Of a DNA stretch of 64,000 nt, positions 969 to 57,504 are shown one piece after another (within the stretch, counting starts at the first letter, position 1; each line of letters opens with the position of its first letter). The translations under genes and the position numbers were made by a program. A model generated the notes under the pieces. That model saw only the letters and a list, made by a program, of their open reading frames with translations, was not told where the DNA came from and searched no databases. Origin of the DNA: an uncultured Bacilli bacterium (GTDB taxonomy: Bacteria; Bacillota_I; Bacilli_A; RF39; UBA660); contig OZ007038.1 of NCBI GenBank assembly GCA_963931685.1, positions 746,940 through 810,939 of the forward strand, written 5' to 3'.

Positions 969-3164
969 ATGATACTAGACAATAACCTGTCTTTTTTTTA
1001 TGTCTTAATTTTATTTCTAGTAATAGGTGCAATAATATTTATAGTATTAATACAACCTAGACTTAATCAAAGAAAAGTAAAAAACAAAAATGAGTATGGC
1101 TCATCAAAGTTTGCAACTAAAAATGAAATAGCTAAAACTTTTAAAAAAGAAAATATTTTTAATATCAAAGAAGCTGGTTTCCCTATATATTTTGAAAAGA
1201 AAAATAATCAATTTGAAAGTGTTTATTTTGATAATGTAAGCCCTCATTGGTTATTAATTGGTAGTACTGGATCAGGTAAATCTGCGACCGTTGTTTTACC
1301 CGAGTGTATAATGTTCGCAACAGCTAAAGAAAAAGAAAGTTTAATCATTACTGATCCTAAAGGCGAAATATTTTCTAAAACTTCTAGTATATTTAAAGAT
1401 AATGGTTATGAAAACATCATTACTATTGATTTTAGAAATCCCCATTTATCTACGCATATAAATATTATGCAACCGATTATTGATGAGTGGAAAATTCATT
1501 GTGTATATGAAGAAAAGTTATTTTATTCTGTCTGTTATTTATTTCATATTTTACAAATTGATTTTGAACAAATTATTGTAAATGAACAATATAAAAATAA
1601 TATTAAAGTAACTTATAAACTAGATGACTATATCATTGAGTATATTTTAAATAACATTGATGCTATTAAAGATAAACTAGAAAGTGAAGATTTTTTTGAT
1701 TTATTAAAAGAAAAAGTTGATTATGAATATAAATCTATTAATAATTCGGAGCTGTTAAATTATATAAAGCAATATCAAAATCAAAGTTCTTCTAGTCAAG
1801 CTGAAGCTACTAGGCTTATTAATAATTTAGCTGATTTGATATTCGCTGAAAAAGAAACAAAAGATCCATTTTGGTTAAACTCATCCAAAAATCTTTTCAA
1901 AGGTATTGCTGGTATTTTTTTAGAAGATTACGAAAGTGGCTTGATACCAGAAAATAAGATAAATGTTTCTAGTATTAAAAAGTTTCAAAACTCCTCTTTA
2001 TTAAAAGAAAATCAAATCTATTTACAGAGAAACTTAAATACTAGAGATTATGGTACTATTTCAAAAGATTATCTTACTTCTATTTTATCGGCGAGTGAAA
2101 ATACATATAAATCAATTACAGCTGTCTTTGGCGAAAAAATGCAAATATTTGATGACCTTAATGTAGAAAACATTACTAGCTCTAGTGATTTTGAAATATT
2201 TTCTTTAGTTGATAAACCTAGTGTACTTTATATTATCGTTCCTGACGAGGATAAGAGCTATTATCAGCTCGTTACTATCATTGTAGGTATTCTTTATAAG
2301 GAACTAACTAAAATCGCTAATATGCCCCATAATAACGGAAAATTACCACGTAAAATTGAGTGGATATTAGATGAGTTCGCAAATTGTCCACCGTTGAGTG
2401 ATATTGAAACGATCGTGTCTGTTGCTAGATCAAGAAATATGCGTTTTCAATTCTTTATTCAGTCTTTTGCTCAACTAGACCAAGTTTATGGGAAAGAATC
2501 ATCATCTATTATTCAAGATAATTCAGCACTCACTTATCTAAAGACAAATAGTATTGACTGTGCTGATGTTATTAGTCGTAAACTTGGTAAATCTACTATT
2601 GAAACCCAGTCAATAAGTCAAAGTACTGACACTTTTAAAGTAGGTGCTAATAAGACTACTTCTCTACTTGGTAGGGAACTTTTAACAGCTAATGAAATAA
2701 TCGCTTTAAAATATAAAACTATTATTTTCCCAACTGTTTCTAATCCTATTTTTAGAGATACTTATTTATATAGTGATATATTTAAAAATTATAATTTTAA
2801 TCCAATTACTAGACAAATAAAAATGATTAAGAAAAATACTCAAAATTATTATACTGTTGAACAAATGAGAGCTAACTATGAAAATCAAAATAATGACGAG
2901 GATAGTTCTGATGACAGTGATATTATGCCTATTGAAAATAATATATCTAATTTATCTTTTGTTATATCCAATATTGAAGATATAGTAAAAGTAAAAGCTA
3001 ATAACAATAAAATAGTTTTAGATAGAAAAATTAATATGTATGAAGAAAATAAAATACTAGAACAACTACTACCTATGATTAATATAGAAATTAAGACTAT
3101 AAGTGAAAGTAATAAAACGATTATTACTTTTTTTGATGCTGAAAAGTATCGTTATTATTTATAA
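969..3164 (+). CDS. type IV secretion coupling protein (VirD4/TraG/TraD family)
   Basis: 731 aa. N-terminal TM helix, Walker A GSTGSGKS, WILDEFAN and SVARSRNMRFQFF motifs typical of conjugative coupling ATPases. Confidence 0.85.
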   Translation: MILDNNLSFFYVLILFLVIGAIIFIVLIQPRLNQRKVKNKNEYGSSKFATKNEIAKTFKKENIFNIKEAGFPIYFEKKNNQFESVYFDNVSPHWLLIGSTGSGKSATVVLPECIMFATAKEKESLIITDPKGEIFSKTSSIFKDNGYENIITIDFRNPHLSTHINIMQPIIDEWKIHCVYEEKLFYSVCYLFHILQIDFEQIIVNEQYKNNIKVTYKLDDYIIEYILNNIDAIKDKLESEDFFDLLKEKVDYEYKSINNSELLNYIKQYQNQSSSSQAEATRLINNLADLIFAEKETKDPFWLNSSKNLFKGIAGIFLEDYESGLIPENKINVSSIKKFQNSSLLKENQIYLQRNLNTRDYGTISKDYLTSILSASENTYKSITAVFGEKMQIFDDLNVENITSSSDFEIFSLVDKPSVLYIIVPDEDKSYYQLVTIIVGILYKELTKIANMPHNNGKLPRKIEWILDEFANCPPLSDIETIVSVARSRNMRFQFFIQSFAQLDQVYGKESSSIIQDNSALTYLKTNSIDCADVISRKLGKSTIETQSISQSTDTFKVGANKTTSLLGRELLTANEIIALKYKTIIFPTVSNPIFRDTYLYSDIFKNYNFNPITRQIKMIKKNTQNYYTVEQMRANYENQNNDEDSSDDSDIMPIENNISNLSFVISNIEDIVKVKANNNKIVLDRKINMYEENKILEQLLPMINIEIKTISESNKTIITFFDAEKYRYYL

Positions 3165-3187
3165 AAATGAAAGGAGGAATTACTTAT

Positions 3188-3484
3188 ATGCCTAATGATG
3201 AAGTTATTGATTATTTAAAAAATATTACGGTCGGCGAATTTATATCTTTAATGGCTAATAATGATAAACCTAAAAATACTTCTACGGTTTATACTACTGA
3301 TGAATTATTAGAACATTACCCAATGTTTAGTAGATTTACTTTAAACAAAGCTATTAAAGAACAAAAATTACCATACTATCGTGAGGGACATAAAATGTAT
3401 TTTGAAAAGAAATTAGTCGATCAATGGATTAACGAACATACTTCTACTTATACCAAGAAAAATAAAGATAAATATAGGCTATAA
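3188..3484 (+). CDS. xis: excisionase-type HTH protein
   Basis: ORF-track 3167..3484. AGGAGG about 10 nt upstream favours ATG 3188. Small MerR/excisionase-like HTH (YTTDELLEHYPMFSRFTLNKAIKEQKLPYY) directly upstream of the integrase. Paralog at 9073..9372. Confidence 0.7.
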   Translation: MPNDEVIDYLKNITVGEFISLMANNDKPKNTSTVYTTDELLEHYPMFSRFTLNKAIKEQKLPYYREGHKMYFEKKLVDQWINEHTSTYTKKNKDKYRL

Positions 3485-3493
3485 GACAGAATT

Positions 3494-4774
3494 ATGAGTG
3501 AAACAAAAAAATATCCATATACAGTAGAGCCTAATATAATTAAATTAGCTCCCAACTATTATAGAATATTGATAAAAAAAGGTAGTGGTAAAAATCAACA
3601 AGTATTTTCTGAATATGTATCAGGTAAAATTGGAGATGCTAGAGCTGTTAAAAGAAAGGGTTTTGCAGAGTTAGAAAATCAAAAAGCAAAAGAAAAGGAT
3701 AAAGGAAAAATAACATTATTTGAATTTAGTAAAGAGTGGTTACAATTTTGTAGAGATACAGGATTAAGCCCTACAACTATAAATGGTTATAAAACTAGAT
3801 TAAATAATTATATATTACCAGAACTAGGTGGCTATCCGTTAGAAAAAATAAATGCTTATGTTATTGATAAGCTATTTGTAGAATTAAAAAACCGTGATAA
3901 ACAAACACCTAATTCAGATGGGGAAATAGAAAAATTATCCTCATCTTCTTTAAATGGTGCATACCGAGTTTTAAGAAATTTATTAAACAGAGCTGTTATA
4001 TGGGATTATATCGAGTATAATCCTATTCATAAAGTAAAATGTCCATCAGCAAAACCTCGTAAAGAAAAAGAAACTTATAATAAAGAAGAATTATTTACTA
4101 CAATTAAGTTATTATTAGACTACAATAAAAAATATGGTGGTATGTTTATTATTGACTGTTGTACTGGTTTAAGAAGATGCGAGTTAAATGGACTTCATAT
4201 TGAAAAAACAAGAAAGCATGATAAAGATATAGAATTAGACGTTGAGTTTGTTAATAAAGATGGTGAAAAATATATCGGTGGACTTGTGTTCGCTAGACAC
4301 TCTGTTGTTTTTGACAAAGAGCTTAAAAAGGTTGTTGAAAGAGATATACCTAAAACCGAAAAAGGAAAACGTGGTATTCCAATACCCCCTATATGTGTTG
4401 AAGCAATACGTGAGTGTATAAAATATCGTGAAAAAGAAATCCAATTATTAAGAAATAAATACGGTAAAGATTTAGAAATTGTCCCAAATTTATTTTTAGG
4501 AAAAACTGGAGGCTTAATGCACCCAGATACTTTGAGCCATAACTGGACTAAATTCAGAGAAAGAAATAAAGGGTTACTACCAAATAAAAATGTAACTCTT
4601 TATGGGTTACGTCATAGCTTTTGTACTTATATGAGAACTAATCCAGAAATTACTATAAATGAAATCATGAATTTAATGGGACATACAGATGAAAAAACAA
4701 CCGATAATTATACCCACTCAAATAGAGAAATTGGCGATAAAATTATTGGAATGTGGGACGGTTTAGAGCTTTAA
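3494..4774 (+). CDS. int: tyrosine-type site-specific integrase
   Basis: 426 aa. N-terminal core-binding segment (LSPTTINGYKTRLNNYILP) and C-terminal catalytic signature (GLRRCEL ... YGLRHSFCTY ... LMGHT ... NYTH). Followed by arm-type repeats and a tRNA 3' fragment. Confidence 0.9.
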   Translation: MSETKKYPYTVEPNIIKLAPNYYRILIKKGSGKNQQVFSEYVSGKIGDARAVKRKGFAELENQKAKEKDKGKITLFEFSKEWLQFCRDTGLSPTTINGYKTRLNNYILPELGGYPLEKINAYVIDKLFVELKNRDKQTPNSDGEIEKLSSSSLNGAYRVLRNLLNRAVIWDYIEYNPIHKVKCPSAKPRKEKETYNKEELFTTIKLLLDYNKKYGGMFIIDCCTGLRRCELNGLHIEKTRKHDKDIELDVEFVNKDGEKYIGGLVFARHSVVFDKELKKVVERDIPKTEKGKRGIPIPPICVEAIRECIKYREKEIQLLRNKYGKDLEIVPNLFLGKTGGLMHPDTLSHNWTKFRERNKGLLPNKNVTLYGLRHSFCTYMRTNPEITINEIMNLMGHTDEKTTDNYTHSNREIGDKIIGMWDGLEL

Positions 4775-6268: not shown

Positions 6269-6625
6269 TTATTTTTCCATTTCTTTGCTTTTAGTTTTTT
6301 TAGTTTCTTTTTGTAATTCATAATCAATCTTATCAGCGATTAAATCATTAGTGTAAACTTTTTCGCCTTTATCATTGGTATAAGATCCACTTTTAAAGTG
6401 AGCTTCAACAGTAACATATTGTTCTTCTTTTAACTCATTTGCCACTTTTTCAGCATCTTTCCATAATTTTAAATTGATAAAGTCATAACTTGTTTTACCA
6501 CTATCATTTTGAAAATCACGTTTACTAGCAATAGTTAAGTAAGCATATTTTCTCTCGTTTCCTCGTAAAACAGGTTTTTTAGCAAGTTTGCCACTAAATT
6601 TACAATAATTAAAATCTTTATCCAT
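6269..6625 (-). CDS. ssb: single-stranded DNA-binding protein-like (OB fold), mobile-element type
   Basis: 118 aa. The pattern FSGKLAKKPVLRGNERKYAYLTIASKRDF...FINLKLWKDAEKVANELKEEQYVTVEAHFKSGSY matches the SSB OB-fold layout. It lacks a long acidic tail. Confidence 0.65.
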   Translation of the reverse strand: MDKDFNYCKFSGKLAKKPVLRGNERKYAYLTIASKRDFQNDSGKTSYDFINLKLWKDAEKVANELKEEQYVTVEAHFKSGSYTNDKGEKVYTNDLIADKIDYELQKETKKTKSKEMEK

Positions 6626-6772
6626 ATTACCATATCCTTTCTTTAATTTTTATTCACTAAACATATTTAATAATAATAATAATAATGACTTACACCACCT
6701 CCTTAAAATAGGGTATAAAAAAGAATCAGTAAACTATTGTTACCAATTCTATTTATTATTTTAAATTTTATA

Positions 6773-8329
6773 TTAATTAAATCTTTTTCTAATATATAAT
6801 CCTGTACCAATTAAGCCTACTAAACTTAATGTTCCAATAATTCCATAAATTAATATATTATCAGATGTTTGAGGATTATCTTCAGTATTATTATTTGTTT
6901 TTTCACTTACATTTGTATCTTTGTAATCAGCAATTGCATAAGTGCTAAAATGATTAGTTTTAAAATGAAGATATAAAACATTGTCAATTTTTTCAACTAC
7001 ACCGTTTATTGTTTCTCCTAATGATGAGTCATTTTTGACATAATATACATCTACTATCTTGCCTACCTCATAATCATTTGAAACAGGTATGTATACATCA
7101 ACATCGTTTGATGTTGTATTAATATATTTATTATTGTAAGCTCCTAGCAAATTAATATCAAAAGCATACTTTAAATTCAAATTATTGTTGTTTTTTGCTT
7201 GTGTTACATAATTTTTACCTAACACATCTTGCACTTTTATAAGTGTATCTAATGGAACATCAAAGCTATCAGTCGATATATTTATTCCTGTATTTTTATC
7301 AGTTGATCTTAAGTTATAATGATCAACATATTTTCCATCAACTTCAACTATTAAATAATATTCTTTAACATTGTTTATCGTAATATCCACACCAATCGAT
7401 TTATATTTTTCATTTGTACCTAATATTTCATTTATATCAGATGATAAATCATATCCATATGATGTAGCACTATTTTTATCAATAGATACTGCAACTGAAT
7501 TATTAAAATACTCATTAAGTTTCTTTTCAACTTTTTCATAAATTGTTCCTGATGAATTTTTATCAATAAAAATCATTGTTTGATAATTTAAATTGATTAC
7601 CTTATAACCATATAAAATATTATCCTTATACAAAAGAACAGCTACCAAATTGTTAGCATCATATGGTGAACCACCTCCACCATATGAAATTATTTTATAA
7701 TTAAACTCATCATTATTTTCAATTACTTTTTTTATTTCTGAAAATCTTAATAAAGTTGTATCTGTCAAAGTATCATCTGCAGACATTCCATAATCATTAT
7801 CTGATAAAGCTCCATAATGATAAATAGAATTTATTGCAGCCATACCATTTAACGAATACTCATCTTTAAAAGATTTTATTATAGATGCTGCTTTATCATA
7901 TGTGGTTTTGTCATAATTAGCATAATTTATTTTAACATCCTTACTTACACCATTACAATTTTTTGTTCCATAATTATAACCATAATAACATAACGTCACT
8001 AAATTATTTGATTTCACAATAGTTGTAAATCCATTATATTCATAATTATTTTTATTAAAATAAAGTGCAAGTGGTACATCATAGACAGTGCCAAAAAAAT
8101 TAAAATCATCATAATTAGTGTTACTTAAATTACTTAAATCAGCAGAATTAAGAGTTATCTCATTACCTATTGAATTTAAAAAATTAAGTGCTTCTTCATC
8201 AGTTGTTATCTCATTATAAGTCAATACCTTATTATAAGTTATTACCTCATTATAAGTCATTGATTTTATAACACTTGGTAAAACCATAGCCACCAACAAA
8301 AATGAAATAAATAAAAATCGTTTTTTCAT
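6773..8329 (-). CDS. secreted surface protein with C-terminal sorting-signal-like anchor
   Basis: 518 aa. Signal peptide MKKRFLFISFLLVAMVLPSVIKS. Three tandem TYNE(V/I)-type hexapeptides after it. C-terminus is NPQTSDN plus a hydrophobic helix plus RKRFN. Confidence 0.7.
   Translation of the reverse strand: MKKRFLFISFLLVAMVLPSVIKSMTYNEVITYNKVLTYNEITTDEEALNFLNSIGNEITLNSADLSNLSNTNYDDFNFFGTVYDVPLALYFNKNNYEYNGFTTIVKSNNLVTLCYYGYNYGTKNCNGVSKDVKINYANYDKTTYDKAASIIKSFKDEYSLNGMAAINSIYHYGALSDNDYGMSADDTLTDTTLLRFSEIKKVIENNDEFNYKIISYGGGGSPYDANNLVAVLLYKDNILYGYKVINLNYQTMIFIDKNSSGTIYEKVEKKLNEYFNNSVAVSIDKNSATSYGYDLSSDINEILGTNEKYKSIGVDITINNVKEYYLIVEVDGKYVDHYNLRSTDKNTGINISTDSFDVPLDTLIKVQDVLGKNYVTQAKNNNNLNLKYAFDINLLGAYNNKYINTTSNDVDVYIPVSNDYEVGKIVDVYYVKNDSSLGETINGVVEKIDNVLYLHFKTNHFSTYAIADYKDTNVSEKTNNNTEDNPQTSDNILIYGIIGTLSLVGLIGTGLYIRKRFN
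7403..7644 (-). repeat. left copy of a perfect 242-bp inverted duplication (inside the surface-protein gene)
   Basis: The reverse complement of 7403..7644 is identical base for base to 8713..8954 (aligned by hand). Confidence 0.9.
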
Positions 8330-24507: not shown

Positions 24508-25024
24508 CTATGCAATTATCTCAAATGGATTTTCTTTAGTTCCACTACCTGACAAAATAGTATCAGATTTTAAGAAAACTACAGGGCGAACAAAAGCAGA
24601 ACTACCATCATAACCTGCAGATTCATTAGATATTGCTACAAAATTATAATCACTATTAACTGTCCAAAGATCTGAAACATTAATAGGGTTTATAGTCCAA
24701 TAACGGCTTTGGGAAAAAAATAAATAATTATTGCATGACATATCCCATGCATCATGTGAATAACTAGCAGATGTACATAATGGGTTTGTACTAGCTTTTA
24801 AAACATCTGATACATTAACTAGCCCGACATTTCCTGTCCATTGATACATTTTCTCTCCTGCTATATTCTTTTCTATACTATCAGATGATGCATCATTTAA
24901 ATATTCTATCGCTCCTATATTAAATGAATGAGAAGTCATTATATCCTACTCCCATTATGACTAATATCATACATAAGCCTATTATTATATAATTTCGCTG
25001 GCTACTATTTAATCTTTTTTTCAT
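24508..25024 (-). pseudogene. frameshifted gene for a membrane-anchored or secreted protein (DUF6273-like C-terminal domain)
   Basis: AGGAGG plus ATG 25024 gives MKKRLNSSQRNYIIIGLCMILVIMGVGYNDFSFI*, stopping at 24920. The 143-aa ORF 24508..24939 continues in another frame. Its C-terminus ...FVRPVVFLKSDTILSGSGTKENPFEII resembles DUF6273-type domains. Confidence 0.55.
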
Positions 25025-25170
25025 GGTTGCTCCTCCCTATATTTATTATTTATATTATACCCCCCTCCTGAAAATTACAAGTATAATGGTTTTATTTAGT
25101 TAAGCGCTTTACACAAAATTGTCAATTAACCCAGTGTGGGGGTGGTGGGGGTATATTTTGCCCTTAAGGA

Positions 25171-25269
25171 CAAAATATACCTTTTACGCCCATAAATATT
25201 TTACACTTATTATGTATAAATCTTTTATAAACAAAGGCTTTTCAAACTTTTATAATCGTAAAATATTTT
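25171..25269 (+). repeat. RIT left terminal inverted repeat
   Basis: CAAAATATACCTTTTACGCCCATAAATATTTTACACTTAT... matches the reverse complement of 28182..28280 at 93 of 99 positions (hand alignment), and the outer 40 bp are identical. Confidence 0.85.
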
Positions 25270-25316
25270 TTTGTTTGATATGATTATTTTGTGAAATTAT
25301 AAAGGAGGTTGATAAA

Positions 25317-26258
25317 ATGATTTCACAAAATAATAAACGGAAACACATCAAAAAATATGTGTTTTCAGGAACTTTACTAGAAGAATATCTGGCTTATACA
25401 AGATATTTAGAGGAACTTGAGATTACTAAGGATACAATGAAATGGAGGTTAAAACATATCAGAGGCTTTTTAGATTATTTAGATAAACATAATATAGTTA
25501 TTAATAATATCTTGCCAAATGTTGTATATGATTATATGATGTCAATCGATGATTTAAGCGTACGTACAAAAGAACATAGAGCTGTTTGTATTAGACTTTT
25601 CTTAAATTGGTTATTTAATAATAAAAAGATTGAAACAAGCGGAACTCATATTTTACCGAAAATAAAAAACAACAAACAAGATAAAGTGGCTGCCTATTAC
25701 TCCAATGAAGAAGTGTCTAAAATATTAAATTCTATAAACATACATGACGTTAATGGAAAGAGAGATTTAGCTATTATGTTGTTATTCGTGAGATTTGGTT
25801 TAAGAGAACGTGATGTCCAACAACTTAAATTGGAAAATATTAAATGGAATGACAATAAAATTATAATAGTTCAAAGTAAGAATAAACAAGTTAATACTTA
25901 TCCAATGATACCTGAAATTAAATATGCTTTAATTGATTATTTAAAAAATGAACGTCCTATTTCTAATTTACCATATCTATTTTTAACCGATTCTAAAAAT
26001 ATATGTACTAGTCATTTTTTTTATAAATTAGTAAACAAGTATTTTAGGAAAGCAGAAATAAATACAAGTTACAAAAAACACGGTTCACATTCTTTAAGAC
26101 ATAGTTTGGCTACTTCGTTACTTAATGATGGCAATTCACTTTATACTATTTCATCTATTCTTGGTCATAAATATATTGCTGATTCTCAAGTCTATACTAA
26201 AGTAGATATTGAAAATTTAAAAAAAATACCTTTGGAAGTGCCTCTATGGAAAGCTTAA
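25317..26258 (+). CDS. tyrosine recombinase 1 of RIT trio (RitA position)
   Basis: 313 aa. GLRERDV, HSLRHSLATS, LGHKY and VYTKV catalytic contexts. Confidence 0.85.
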   Translation: MISQNNKRKHIKKYVFSGTLLEEYLAYTRYLEELEITKDTMKWRLKHIRGFLDYLDKHNIVINNILPNVVYDYMMSIDDLSVRTKEHRAVCIRLFLNWLFNNKKIETSGTHILPKIKNNKQDKVAAYYSNEEVSKILNSINIHDVNGKRDLAIMLLFVRFGLRERDVQQLKLENIKWNDNKIIIVQSKNKQVNTYPMIPEIKYALIDYLKNERPISNLPYLFLTDSKNICTSHFFYKLVNKYFRKAEINTSYKKHGSHSLRHSLATSLLNDGNSLYTISSILGHKYIADSQVYTKVDIENLKKIPLEVPLWKA

Positions 26259-27160
26259 AAGGTCCCTTCAAAGATATTATTCCACAATTCCAAAACTATA
26301 AAAAAAGTCTTGGATATTTATATGATAACATATCTTCTTTTGTACAGTTAGATAATTTTTTATATAATCAGGGTATTTATGACTTTAATGATACAAAAAT
26401 TATCTTTGAAGTTTTAATTAAAAATGAGCCAAATTTGTCTAAGAAAACAAATAGATATACTTGTTTACAACAGTTATACGAATTTATGGAACTATTAGGA
26501 TATCACAATCTTTATTTTGAAAATATACAATTTGATAAAAAACCAAATTTTATTCCTAGAATTTTAAATGCAAAAGAAATTACTTTATTTTTAAAAAAAA
26601 TAGACCAATTAAGTATTTTGTTAGATAATGATGAACAATATATTTATCCAACTTTATTTAGATTATTATATAGTTCGGGATTGAGAATTAATGAAGCTTT
26701 AAAACTTAAGATTACTGATATATCTTTAAAAGATGGTACAATAACAATTGTTAAGGGTAAAGGTAATATTGCTAGATTAATACCTTTATCTCCAACCATG
26801 AAATGTACACTAACTAATTATTTAAAAATAGTTAATTGTAAAACTTATCTATTTGAAATTAATAATAAACCAATTACATATATAAAAGTTGCTGATTTCT
26901 TTCATAAAATTACAAATAAAATGTTTGACTTTAGAATACATGATTTACGTCATACTTTTGCTGTTACTGTATTTAATAATTTATATAAAAAAGGGTTGTC
27001 TGAATATCAAATACTTTATTTACTTCACATATATATGGGTCATACAAATATTAAAAGTACAGAATATTATCTACGAATGACAGATGAAACTTACAATAGA
27101 ATTATAAATAATTTTCATAATAAATATCCAAATGTTATTCCTAAGGTGGGTGAGATGTAA
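26246..27160 (+). CDS. tyrosine recombinase 2 of RIT trio (RitB position)
   Basis: 304 aa. Overlaps the upstream gene by 13 nt. GLRINEAL, HDLRHTFAVT, MGHTN and EYYLRM. Confidence 0.85.
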   Translation: MESLKGPFKDIIPQFQNYKKSLGYLYDNISSFVQLDNFLYNQGIYDFNDTKIIFEVLIKNEPNLSKKTNRYTCLQQLYEFMELLGYHNLYFENIQFDKKPNFIPRILNAKEITLFLKKIDQLSILLDNDEQYIYPTLFRLLYSSGLRINEALKLKITDISLKDGTITIVKGKGNIARLIPLSPTMKCTLTNYLKIVNCKTYLFEINNKPITYIKVADFFHKITNKMFDFRIHDLRHTFAVTVFNNLYKKGLSEYQILYLLHIYMGHTNIKSTEYYLRMTDETYNRIINNFHNKYPNVIPKVGEM

Positions 27161-27161
27161 G

Positions 27162-28163
27162 ATGTTAATGAATTTCTCATATTATATTAAAAAATATTTT
27201 ACTTCTTATCTTCCAGTTACACGAAATTTAAATTCTTCTACAATTAGAACTTATAAAAATGATATGCTATGTTTTATTAAATATTTAATAGAAATTAATA
27301 TAAACGTTGATGAGCTACAATTAAAAGACATAAGTTTTTCATTTATAGAAAATTATATAAAATTTTTAAAAGATGAAAAAAACAATGGGGCTAAAACTAT
27401 TAATTTAAAACTCACCATATTAAAATCCTTCTTTTCATATTTAAGTCTTGAAACTGTAGATGCAATTGATGTTTGTGAAATGGTCAGAAAAATTAAGTTA
27501 TTAAAACCTGAAGTTACTATTCCTAGTTATTTAACAGCCAAAGAAATAGAATGTTTATTAATACAACCAATTAAGTTAAACAATATAAAAGAATTAGCTA
27601 TTTTAACTCTACTTTATGATGGTGCTTTAAGAGTTAGTGAATTATGTAATTTAAAAGTAGAAAATATTACTTTGGATAGTATTTCTAAAATTAATGTAGT
27701 TAAAAGTAAAAATAACAACTTTAGAATTATTCCCCTTAATAAGCAAACCACTAAAATATTAAAAAAATATATTGATGAATATAATTTAAACAATAACGAT
27801 TTTTTATTTACTAATAAATATGGTAAAAAATATACCCAAAAAGGAATAGCTTATATTTTAAATAAAAATTATAATTTAGCTAAAAAATATTGTAATGATA
27901 ATACAATGTATAATTATAAGAGTCATCCTCATATGTTAAGGCATAGTAAAGCAATACATTTATTAGAAAGTGGAATTGATTTAATAACTATTAGAGATTT
28001 TTTAGGACATAAACATGTAAGTACAACAGAAATATATGCGCGTATCACTGATGAAAAGAAAGCAGAAATTTTATTAAAAAACACGAAAAAAAAGCCATTA
28101 AAACTCAAACGAAGAAAAAAACAAAGAGAAAATTTAGAAAGTTGGTTAAGAGAAAACTATTAA
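27162..28163 (+). CDS. tyrosine recombinase 3 of RIT trio (RitC position)
   Basis: ORF-track 27132..28163. ATG 27162 directly follows the upstream stop, with GGTGGGTGAG upstream. ALRVSELC, HMLRHSKAIH, LGHKH and EIYARI. Confidence 0.85.
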   Translation: MLMNFSYYIKKYFTSYLPVTRNLNSSTIRTYKNDMLCFIKYLIEININVDELQLKDISFSFIENYIKFLKDEKNNGAKTINLKLTILKSFFSYLSLETVDAIDVCEMVRKIKLLKPEVTIPSYLTAKEIECLLIQPIKLNNIKELAILTLLYDGALRVSELCNLKVENITLDSISKINVVKSKNNNFRIIPLNKQTTKILKKYIDEYNLNNNDFLFTNKYGKKYTQKGIAYILNKNYNLAKKYCNDNTMYNYKSHPHMLRHSKAIHLLESGIDLITIRDFLGHKHVSTTEIYARITDEKKAEILLKNTKKKPLKLKRRKKQRENLESWLRENY

Positions 28164-28181
28164 GTTTTTTCTCTTTTTTTC

Positions 28182-28280
28182 AAAATATTTTACGATTATA
28201 AAAGTTTGAAAAGTCCTTATTTATAAAGGATTTATGCAAAATAAGTGTAAAATATTTATGGGCGTAAAAGGTATATTTTG
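28182..28280 (-). repeat. RIT right terminal inverted repeat
   Basis: See 25171..25269. Confidence 0.85.
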
Positions 28281-28300
28281 TTATTTTTTCTAAAAAAGAC

Positions 28301-56799: not shown

Positions 56800-57000
56800 A
56801 TTTCAACAACAAAAAAACGTCCTAGTTAAGGACGAGTTTTCCCGCGGTACCACCTTATTTTATTAATTAAAATACACTCAAATAACTATAACGCGTTACC
56901 GTTCTTATCTACTTATTTTCAAAAAGAAACATCAAGAGTGATCTATATATTAAACTGTTATTAGTTCACACCACCACTAACTCTCTTTAAACTATTTTAA
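56800..57000 (-). promoter_or_regulatory. T-box riboswitch leader, candidate Ile (AUC) specifier
   Basis: Minus strand: AGAGAG (56986..56981) ... AUC-A-CUCUU (specifier 56942..56940) ... F-box-like ACGCGUUA ... T-box AAGGUGGUACCGCGG (56854..56842) ... terminator CGUCCU-UAACU-AGGACG (56834..56818) plus U7. Confidence 0.8.
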
Positions 57001-57024
57001 TATACCGGCTCTATCATTTGTTTT

Positions 57025-57504
57025 TTATATATCTAATTTGTCTATATCATCAATAATTTCTAATTGTGATTCAATAATGTTTTTTAATCTATGTTTTAAA
57101 ACATTAATATTTCTTTTCATCATTTCAGCATCGTTTTCTATTTTTTCAGCTCTAATTAAAGCTTCATTAACTATTCTACTAGCGTTTTTCTTAGCATCAT
57201 CTAAAATTATTTCACTTTCGTGGTGAGCGGCAACTTTTAACTGGTCTGATGTTTTTTGGGCCATTAGTATGGCTCTATTTAAAGTACTTTCCATTCTTTC
57301 ATATTGCTCGAGTTTTTCTTTTAGAGCATTTGTTTCTTCTAGTTTTGATTTTAATTTTCTAATTTCGTCATTTTTGTCAACAATTAATTTGTTTTTAGCA
57401 TCTATATCAGCTATCATTTTTTCTACTCTTTTAATAACTTGATCTAAGAAGTTATTTACTTCATCTGGATCATAGCCTCTCATGACTCTAGTAAATTTTT
57501 CCAT
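57025..57504 (-). CDS. divIVA: DivIVA-domain protein
   Basis: 159 aa. FTRVMRGYDPDEVNNFLDQV followed by a coiled coil. Confidence 0.8.
   Translation of the reverse strand: MEKFTRVMRGYDPDEVNNFLDQVIKRVEKMIADIDAKNKLIVDKNDEIRKLKSKLEETNALKEKLEQYERMESTLNRAILMAQKTSDQLKVAAHHESEIILDDAKKNASRIVNEALIRAEKIENDAEMMKRNINVLKHRLKNIIESQLEIIDDIDKLDI

Follow-up and report, generated by a model that had tools for sequence, protein, structure and literature searches.

A cargo-free recombinase-in-trio element, probably intact and recently active, and its natural empty and filled sites in an uncultured member of the Bacillota

The 64,000-nucleotide stretch analysed here (hereafter the window; contig OZ007038.1 of assembly GCA_963931685.1, positions 746,940 to 810,939, forward strand) comes from an uncultured, small-genome Bacillota organism of approximately 25% G+C. 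In it three open reading frames (ORFs) lie in tandem on one strand, and as a first-pass annotation of the bare sequence had proposed they specify tyrosine recombinases: all three products possess a PF00589 domain, with the catalytic motifs at the sequences which that annotation had quoted. The block is bracketed by long inverted repeats, and between these the ORF list offers no credible gene besides the three recombinase ORFs, in keeping with the earlier statement that cargo is absent. Taken together, the evidence given below makes it probable that this 3.1-kb unit is an intact, recently active, cargo-free recombinase-in-trio (RIT) element, and that it belongs to a clade whose first recombinase, RitA, is short. 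The coordinates of its parts are collected in Table 1.

The three proteins were compared by blastp with reference trios, all of them from plasmids: pHG1 of Cupriavidus necator H16 (named as rich in RITs by Van Houdt et al., PMC3414803), a plasmid of Bacillus sp. S3, and R. albus pRUMAL02. ORF1 found its best match in the first gene of each reference trio (E values 1e-41 to 5e-51), ORF2 in the second (5e-25 to 2e-35) and ORF3 in the third (1e-52 to 1e-57). All matches across positions were 1e-15 or weaker, the positional ones being better by 10–40 orders of magnitude. A neighbour-joining (NJ) tree of 24 proteins from eight trios likewise resolved into three clades by gene position, among which the window proteins were placed. 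This makes the element a RIT in the canonical A-B-C order, and the family named in the first pass is borne out; the subfamilies were assigned by means of the reference trios and the NJ tree. A DNA similarity search with the whole element against plasmids and phages gave no match, and a RitC scan of the GTDB species genomes returned only relatives of ~30% identity. The representative of the host species therefore either does not carry the element or is missing from that collection.

Genes ritA and ritB overlap by 13 nt, and ritC starts 1 nt past the ritB stop. Two starts are possible for the third ORF, 27132 and 27162, and the latter is the likely one; it is preceded by a Shine-Dalgarno-like GGTGGGTGAG stretch and is used by gene callers on 17 public contigs (333 aa), while the 343-aa RitC that would begin at the upstream ATG had no record in an exact-protein look-up. 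The HxLRH, (L/M)GH and tyrosine motifs were located in RitA, RitB and RitC by regular-expression search. The same search matched the arginine motif of box I, GLRxx(D/E), in RitA and RitB; box I of RitC (GALRVSE) was read by eye.

In the RitA subgroup, according to Smyshlyaev et al. (2021, PMC8138268), the catalytic domain is preceded by two successive core-binding domains. In the window RitA the catalytic domain begins at residue 130 (PF00589), which leaves room for one core-binding domain. With its 313 aa the protein is missing the N-terminal ~100 aa of the 400–420-aa RitAs, and it aligns only to residues ~115–405 of RitAs of 403–420 aa. The double core-binding domain is a descriptive trait of the subgroup and stands outside the original definition of RITs. 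Nor is the short RitA a one-off: most of the best 120 database matches are 302–316 aa in length, including those from Sporomusa ovata, Desulfitobacterium dichloroeliminans and Thomasclavelia spiroformis, and the short RitAs group together in the NJ tree, forming a large Bacillota clade. For the RitC subgroup an extra conserved C-terminal helix has been reported (PMC8138268). The window RitC continues for 41 residues past the catalytic tyrosine and can be aligned to the RitCs of pHG1 and R. albus through residue 329 of 333, a tail which would fit such a helix.

As measured with a repeat finder, the inverted repeats are 100 nt each and complementary at 94 of 100 positions; the hand alignment of the first pass had given 93 of 99. 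Counted from the outer end, all six mismatches fall at positions 43–68, which leaves 42 identical nt on the outer side of the two repeats and 32 on the inner. The 37-nt terminus of the repeat occurs exactly twice in the window as against 0.00 times expected from shuffled sequences. The 11-mer AAATATTTTAC was present at each of the four positions given for it earlier (25194 and 28183 on the forward strand, 25258 and 28247 on the reverse) and, in addition, at 27192; these five copies compare with 0.83 expected. Each repeat holds three TTTTAC-type motifs, of which the second and third make up the 11-mer pair; in the left repeat the three are TTTTACGCCC at 25182, AAATATTTTAC at 25194 and the inverted GTAAAATATTT at 25258.

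Two further observations touch the repeats. The stretch TGATATGATTATTTTGTGAAAT (25272–25300), situated past the inner end of the left repeat and before the ribosome-binding site of ritA, is also conserved on two other contigs (L061, ~640–675; L066, ~3960–3990) where RitA is only 50–63% identical, and it may be a promoter or operator of the trio. In a variant copy of the element (L009) the right repeat (1816–1909) is 98.9% identical to left-repeat sequence, as against 94% in the window, which suggests homogenisation of the two repeats.

The limits of the element were drawn by comparison with empty sites. An exact look-up of RitC led to a 604-kb contig (ena:ERZ21549406:tig00016541) holding both the window locus (L002) and a second copy ~80 kb away (L001), with 1 mismatch between the two in 3105 bp. 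Look-up of the neighbouring YebC-family protein then yielded five contigs from other samples (L015, L016, L017, L021 and L022) in which the two genes that flank the window element are direct neighbours, and trio and repeats are absent. The empty site reads ...GGTGGTGGGGGTATATTTTGTTATTTTTTCTAAAAAAGAC... (core stretch GGTGGGGGTATATTTTGTTATTTT, short form GGGGGTATATTTTGTTATTTT) and the filled one ...GGTGGTGGGGGTATATTTTG / CCCTTAAGGACAAAATATACC...GGGCGTAAAAGGTATATTTTG / TTATTTTTTC..., slashes marking the limits of the insert. The inserted DNA (25156–28275) amounts to exactly 3120 bp, its register being ambiguous inside the 11-bp GGTATATTTTG; this is the sole flank sequence which is repeated, and it is identical to the element's own right end. 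The five empty contigs place the repeats with the element and not with the flanks, and since exactly 3120 bp separate the filled from the empty site, the trio is not part of a larger Tn554-like unit; on both counts the first-pass reading might have failed.

At this site and at the two others described below the insert runs in the order 20-bp spacer, TATACC, left repeat, ritABC, right repeat, GGTATA, and the spacer is found at one junction in every full copy examined. The repeats are confirmed, but the limits of the element first drawn from them (25171 and 28280) need correction. The outer 6 nt of the measured repeats consist on the left (25170–25175) of spacer and on the right (28276–28281) of target DNA which is present in the empty site. 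That they pair in the window repeats is due only to the target, which here happens to run on as TTTTGT; the L001 site shows no such pairing. An alternative view of the left-flank palindrome, as a palindrome which pre-existed in the target, was dropped, the empty sites showing only GGTATATTTTG as target and the rest as inserted.

The site of the second copy (L001 and L042) has empty alleles on L047–L050, which were reached via a NifU neighbour. Empty it reads ...TATAGAGGGGGGGGGGGTATAATATACATAGAAC... (core stretch GGGGGGGTATAATATACATAG, short form GGGGGTATAATATACATAG), filled ...GGGGGGGGGGGGTATA / TTTTGTCCTTAAGGGCAAAATATACCTTTTACGCCC...GGGCGTAAAAGGTATA / ATATACATAGAAC..., and element and target share GGTATA only (6 bp). 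The crossover site used by this copy is the TATACC core. At a third site a 94%-identical variant is inserted (L038; empty alleles L052, L053 and L058), the empty form being ...GTAGGGGGCATTTTACAAC... (core stretch GGGGGCATTTTACAAC) and the two filled junctions GTAGGGGG / TATATTTTGCCC... and ...AAAAGGTAT / TTTACAAC. In this case 4 of 6 positions agree between the target core, GGCATT, and that of the element, and the T at the left junction is of the element type, which speaks for exchange within the overlap and against duplication of the target. The further copies and empty sites for which the first pass had recommended a search thus exist, as a second copy on the same contig and three pairs of filled and empty sites. 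The target is a G-run followed by (T/C)AT and AT-rich DNA, as in GGGGGTATAAT.

Table 1. Features of the RIT element and its insertion site (window coordinates)
Feature	Position	Strand	Basis or remark
Target unit of ~100 bp, bounded by TATACCCCCC and GGGGGTATA	25056–25155		Element inserted at its right-hand G-run/GTATA
GGTATA, target-derived copy of the 6-bp crossover core; outer core at left junction (hybrid core)	25150–25155	+	Once in empty sites, twice in filled site
Near-palindromic 20-bp spacer TTTTGCCCTTAAGGACAAAA, part of insert, outside the left-repeat core	25156–25175		Absent from empty sites
TATACC, intact second core of the element, mirror of GGTATA	25176–25181	+	Homology of the two copies on the 604-kb contig starts exactly here
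Left inverted repeat	25170–25269 measured; functional part 25176–25269	+	Repeat finder, motif positions
Promoter-like site inside left repeat, facing ritA (TAAACA-17-TATAAT, 10/12)	25228–25256	+	Consensus match only
ritA, short form, tyrosine recombinase, 313 aa	25317–26258	+	PF00589, best matches to RitA, RitA clade, catalytic motifs
ritB, tyrosine recombinase, 304 aa	26246–27160	+	PF00589, best matches to RitB, RitB clade, catalytic motifs
ritC, tyrosine recombinase with basic C-terminal extension, 333 aa	27162–28163	+	PF00589, best matches to RitC, RitC clade
Right inverted repeat	28182–28281 measured; functional part 28182–28275	-	28276–28281 is target DNA
GGTATA core, right junction	28270–28275	+	Empty/filled comparison; target DNA from 28276 on

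Assemblies of window-type and related RITs repeatedly break at the element ends, giving contigs of ~2.9–3.1 kb. An IS200-type insertion sequence (Y1 transposase) lies beside the second copy (L042 6504–7105, compared with L047 5990–6000); it is precisely absent in the empty-site contigs and is therefore an independent insertion polymorphism.

If the right end of the insert is joined to its left end the result is ...GGGCGTAAAA / GGTATA / TTTTGCCCTTAAGGACAAAA / TATACC / TTTTACGCCC..., a long palindrome containing two mirror-image cores. The spacer departs from symmetry and so reveals its orientation. In the window copy the order is G-run, GGTATA, spacer (C..A) and left repeat, and in the L001 copy, counted from its own G-run, it is G-run, GGTATA, spacer (T..G) and right repeat. 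These are the two products which would be expected when either junction core recombines with a target of fixed polarity. On contigs L041 and L043–L045, which represent the L001 site, the spacer has the same (T..G) orientation, but it is the left repeat and ritA which adjoin it. The site is occupied in both orientations, and the simplest reading is an inversion of the whole element between its inner core and its far core. L043–L045 (for example L044 6650–7080) retain of the RIT only the spacer, the left repeat and ritA codons 1–77; the deletion past codon 77 also removes the 468-aa gene and the retroelement region described below, up to the SufBD gene.

We propose that the element moves by conservative site-specific recombination of the tyrosine-recombinase kind and not by cut-and-duplicate transposition. 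The donor would be a form in which the two repeats are abutted across the spacer, most simply a circle, with the predicted junction GGGCGTAAAAGGTATATTTTG(C/T)CCTTAAGG(A/G)CAAAATATACCTTTTACGCCC. Each of the two junction cores would be flanked by A/T-tract arms in the manner of a lox or dif site, and either could recombine with the pseudo-core of the target, strand exchange taking place within GGTATA or at its edges. Use of either core would lead to insertion in both orientations and would leave the spacer and the unused core at one junction. Subsequently the inner core, left intact, and the far core, which are inverted relative to each other, could recombine and flip the whole element in place. 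That identity between element and target is limited to the core, together with the structure of the insert, fits recombination from the abutted-repeat form. The three TTTTAC-type motifs of each repeat are likely recombinase-binding or accessory sites. The synapse would bring together unlike half-sites, namely the repeat arm TTTTACGCCC, the spacer arm TTTTGCCC, the G-run of the target and its AT-rich arm, and one may speculate that this is the reason for more than two recombinase species.

The same layout of arm, 6-bp core, 20-bp palindrome, 6-bp core and arm is present in other RITs, namely those of the P0069 type and those of R. albus pRUMAL02 and pHG1. The P0069-type RIT, whose RitA is 38% identical to that of the window, lies inside IS66 transposase genes on ten contigs (L028–L037), at the codons of the CDET motif and in both orientations. 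Its junctions read ...ctgaactggcgt / TTCATC TTATGTAAAC... and ...GTTTACATAA GATGAA / TTATGTAAATATTTACATAA / TTCATC gcaatg..., giving the double core GTTTACATAA / GATGAA / TTATGTAAATATTTACATAA / TTCATC / TTATGTAAAC with a perfect 20-bp palindrome between the cores; each core is flanked by perfect inverted arms of 9 bp (TTTACATAA and TTATGTAAA). A DNA search for the uninterrupted IS66 target gave no match and a comparison at the protein level was used in its place. When the transposase is rebuilt with a single GATGAA it regains ...HCDETPVQVL..., and 101 residues of the rebuilt stretch align in one piece to 303 nt of an intact IS66 transposase gene. This indicates that there is no gap, and therefore that the P0069-type target also held the core once.

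In the two long-RitA RITs the arrangement was read at one end, as CTTTACATTA AATCTC TAATGTGAAGCTTTACATTA GAGATT in R. albus pRUMAL02 and as TAGCGC AAATGTGCTGCAGCACATTT GCGCTA TTACCGG in pHG1. In the lineages examined a ~10-nt motif stands twice in direct orientation next to the core of each repeat and once, inverted, at its inner end, and this layout of the window repeat recurs in five other RIT lineages. Imperfect palindromes of 47 and 51 bp have been noted at the ends of Sphingobium RITs by Nielsen et al. (PMC5737581), who proposed hairpins; the 52-bp unit of arm, core, spacer, core and arm in the window element is probably the same feature.

On some of the P0069-type contigs both flanks are of the spacer-less kind or both are of the kind with the spacer, and recombination between copies would give such forms. 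Among L028–L037 there are also contigs with a second, long-RitA RIT nearby (398/313–318/339 aa), beside IS66 transposase fragments, and some on which identical inverted flanks on both sides extend the inverted repeats to 293–503 bp. The extended flanks suggest rearrangements between copies.

In the Cre/loxP and XerCD/dif systems short inverted arms flank an overlap of 6–8 bp, and recombination between inverted sites leads to inversion, that between direct sites to excision. RITs are alike in having short inverted arms around the exchange core, as is seen in the P0069-type core TTTACATAA-GATGAA-TTATGTAAA. The window element differs from these systems in its two back-to-back cores across a 20-bp palindrome, in its three recombinases, and in a target half-site (the G-run) which is unlike the arms of the element.

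Several points weigh against the account of movement given above. The flanks of the empty strain in the third pair are only ~94–97% identical, so that a strain polymorphism might account for the C/T difference in the core. The inversion is deduced from one asymmetric base pair of the spacer and from contigs of different samples. The RIT of Bacillus sp. S3 has a spacer at neither end. The circle junction had 0 matches in the JGI metagenomes, and the element terminus is absent there too, so this search is uninformative. Two copies per genome are compatible with replicative as well as non-replicative routes, copy-out and cut-out alike.

Among other explanations, we regard as rather unlikely one in which the intermediate is linear, hairpin-ended or single-stranded instead of a double-stranded circle, with the terminal palindrome as a hairpin end in the sense of Nielsen et al. 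Their data include raised RIT coverage in exonuclease-treated “mobilome” DNA with no circular junction reads (PMC5737581), and their imperfect end palindromes have a counterpart in the 52-bp palindrome of the window element; the uninformative search for the circle junction would also agree with it. Yet the palindrome is found at only one junction per insertion, and one half, comprising the outer core with its flank, consists of target DNA, as predicted by a crossover inside a double-core junction and not by a terminal hairpin. Furthermore, tyrosine recombinases normally work on duplex core sites.

It is also unlikely that staggered cleavage at a preferred sequence gave rise to the repeated GGTATA as an ordinary target-site duplication. 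The L001 insert is indeed surrounded by a 6-bp direct repeat, and a sequence-specific duplication of 6 bp is inseparable by sequence alone from a 6-bp overlap. However, the repeat is just as long as the stretch over which the target happens to agree with the end of the element (11 bp in the window and 6 bp at L001). The third site has GGCATT as its target and GGTATA at the left junction, so the target was not simply duplicated. In every lineage examined the duplicated sequence is the element's own terminal core, and the only enzymes encoded are tyrosine recombinases.

Very improbable, in our view, is a trio which serves as a resident, non-mobile invertible-DNA switch or as a domesticated Xer-like system, the repeats being chromosomal recombination sites. 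The proteins do match NCBIfam models for XerC/XerD and for tyrosine-type DNA invertases, and inverted repeats could support inversion, which does seem to occur. The matches are nevertheless sub-threshold, XerC/XerD scoring 114–182 bits against equivalog cut-offs of 330–335, and no Xer or invertase score comes near its curated cut-off. Chromosomal XerC/XerD would be expected at a single conserved locus; the window locus is polymorphic for presence of the element, with five contigs on which repeats and genes are absent; a near-identical copy resides elsewhere on the same contig, and the third site has empty alleles as well.

Next to no credence can be given to a Tn554-, GInt- or SE-type element, for although these are all multi-recombinase tyrosine-recombinase transposons with site preference and a weak match to GmtY was obtained (2e-8, 34 bits against a cut-off of 340), the third gene specifies a full tyrosine recombinase of 333 aa and no TnpC- or Srap-like small protein, three genes fill the 3120-bp insert with no fourth (GInt and SE elements having four, including Tfp/GinC and Srap/GinD), inverted repeats of 100 nt are present, and the proteins group with RitA, RitB and RitC of pHG1. 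Tn554, SE/GInt and Tn916/CTnDOT-type elements do resemble the window element as tyrosine-recombinase transposons with 6–7-bp junction sequences and a site preference, but Tn554, which has the recombinases TnpA and TnpB and a small TnpC, is without inverted repeats, and its TnpC is grouped with the non-recombinase Srap/GinD (PMC10214605). The double-core palindrome is found in none of them.

The RITs of Cupriavidus metallidurans CH34 and C. necator pHG1 are like the window element in having three adjacent overlapping genes, ritA-ritB-ritC, one from each subfamily, as well as motif-bearing terminal inverted repeats, no cargo, and several near-identical copies per genome; the pHG1 copy is in addition alike in the layout of core, 20-bp palindrome and core at one end. 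Their RitAs are of 398–420 aa as compared with 313 aa, and RIT repeats are given as 34 bp (PMC10214605) as compared with ~94–100 bp. The window element is also unlike them in its AT-rich, small-genome Bacillota host and in its natural empty, filled and inverted alleles. Comparable too are the short-RitA Bacillota RITs (those of S. ovata, D. dichloroeliminans and T. spiroformis, and the IS66-nested P0069 type), which have a RitA of 302–316 aa, a unit of ~2.9–3.1 kb and the same order of the trio, the P0069 type sharing also the ~100-bp repeats and the layout of 6-bp core and 20-bp spacer. RitA identity to the window protein is 37–65% in this group, and cores and targets differ: the P0069-type target is TTCATC within catalytic-motif codons of IS66 transposase genes and that of the window element is G-run-GTATA.

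RIT elements are widespread and have been known since 2009–2013 (Van Houdt et al. 2009, 2012; Ricker et al. 2013). According to a comparison of 2023 (PMC10214605, Table 1 and Discussion), no laboratory has reproduced their transposition, and “not tested” is the entry for target specificity, for empty-site formation and for the mode of movement, in agreement with the remark of the first-pass annotation that RIT movement is experimentally unsettled. The natural allelic series described here, with two near-identical copies, three pairs of filled and empty sites and one site in both orientations, gives sequence-level answers or predictions on all three subjects; it confines the crossover to 6 bp and allows the junction of the intermediate to be predicted exactly. 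Part of the spacer and core architecture of the ends may already be described in Ricker et al. 2013. The value of the element lies in unusually clear natural evidence of mobility and not in strangeness. It is a minimal and evidently active RIT, and with natural substrates and products at hand the questions of how RITs move and why they need three recombinases become approachable. A bolder and rather doubtful view would have the movement of RITs depend wholly on the double-core junction: integration either way, excision and inversion would be one reaction geometry, the three recombinases would divide the unlike half-sites among them, and the element would act as a mobile, invertible on/off insertion in promoters.

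As to the genomic surroundings, the motif GGGGGTATA has only two occurrences in the window, at the two ends of the ~100-bp target unit, and one of these is occupied; the L001 copy has a comparable unit beside it. At that site the G-run is situated between TTGACA and TATAAT, upstream of a gene specifying a 468-aa protein, and the tract varies from 6 to 18 G among samples (empty: L047 6148, L048 6654, L049 6655, L050 6656 and L051 6657; filled: L001/L042, L041 and L043–L045). A variable poly-G tract between such hexamers looks like a slipped-strand, phase-variable promoter. The second copy lies in the upstream region of the 468-aa gene, and paralogues of this gene adjoin the window copy (there as a broken gene) and the L039 copy. 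The recurring association of the RIT with this gene family arises because of a shared promoter-like motif and not through duplication of a larger segment. Segmental duplication as the explanation for the paralogous genes near both copies was rejected, since the DNA between gene and element is unrelated at the two sites, and an empty allele exists for each of them. In this host the preferred target may lie where a poly-G tract meets a -10-like TATAAT, upstream of genes belonging to a surface-protein-like family.

In the window the broken paralogue's C-terminal portion corresponds to a 143-aa ORF on the reverse strand (24508–24939). A signal-peptide-like start (MKKRLNSSQRNYIIIGLCMILV...) is readable upstream of it in another frame (~25025–24940), and the motif GGGGGGTATAAT (25056–25067, reverse strand) lies ~30 nt upstream of the start of the broken paralogue.

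A diversity-generating retroelement lies beside the second RIT copy, and its variable repeat forms the 3' end of the 468-aa gene. On L001 the retroelement comprises RVT_1 and bAvd genes (2439–3861), a template repeat (4534–4627) and the variable repeat (6449–6542) at the 3' end of the gene (6384–7790, reverse strand), whose product is a secreted-type protein. The two 94-nt repeats are 79% identical, one of them being situated in the C-terminal coding region of that gene.

Elsewhere in the window, a T-box leader (RF00230, 110 bits) is present at 56825–57026 on the reverse strand, the only Rfam family to score above threshold there.

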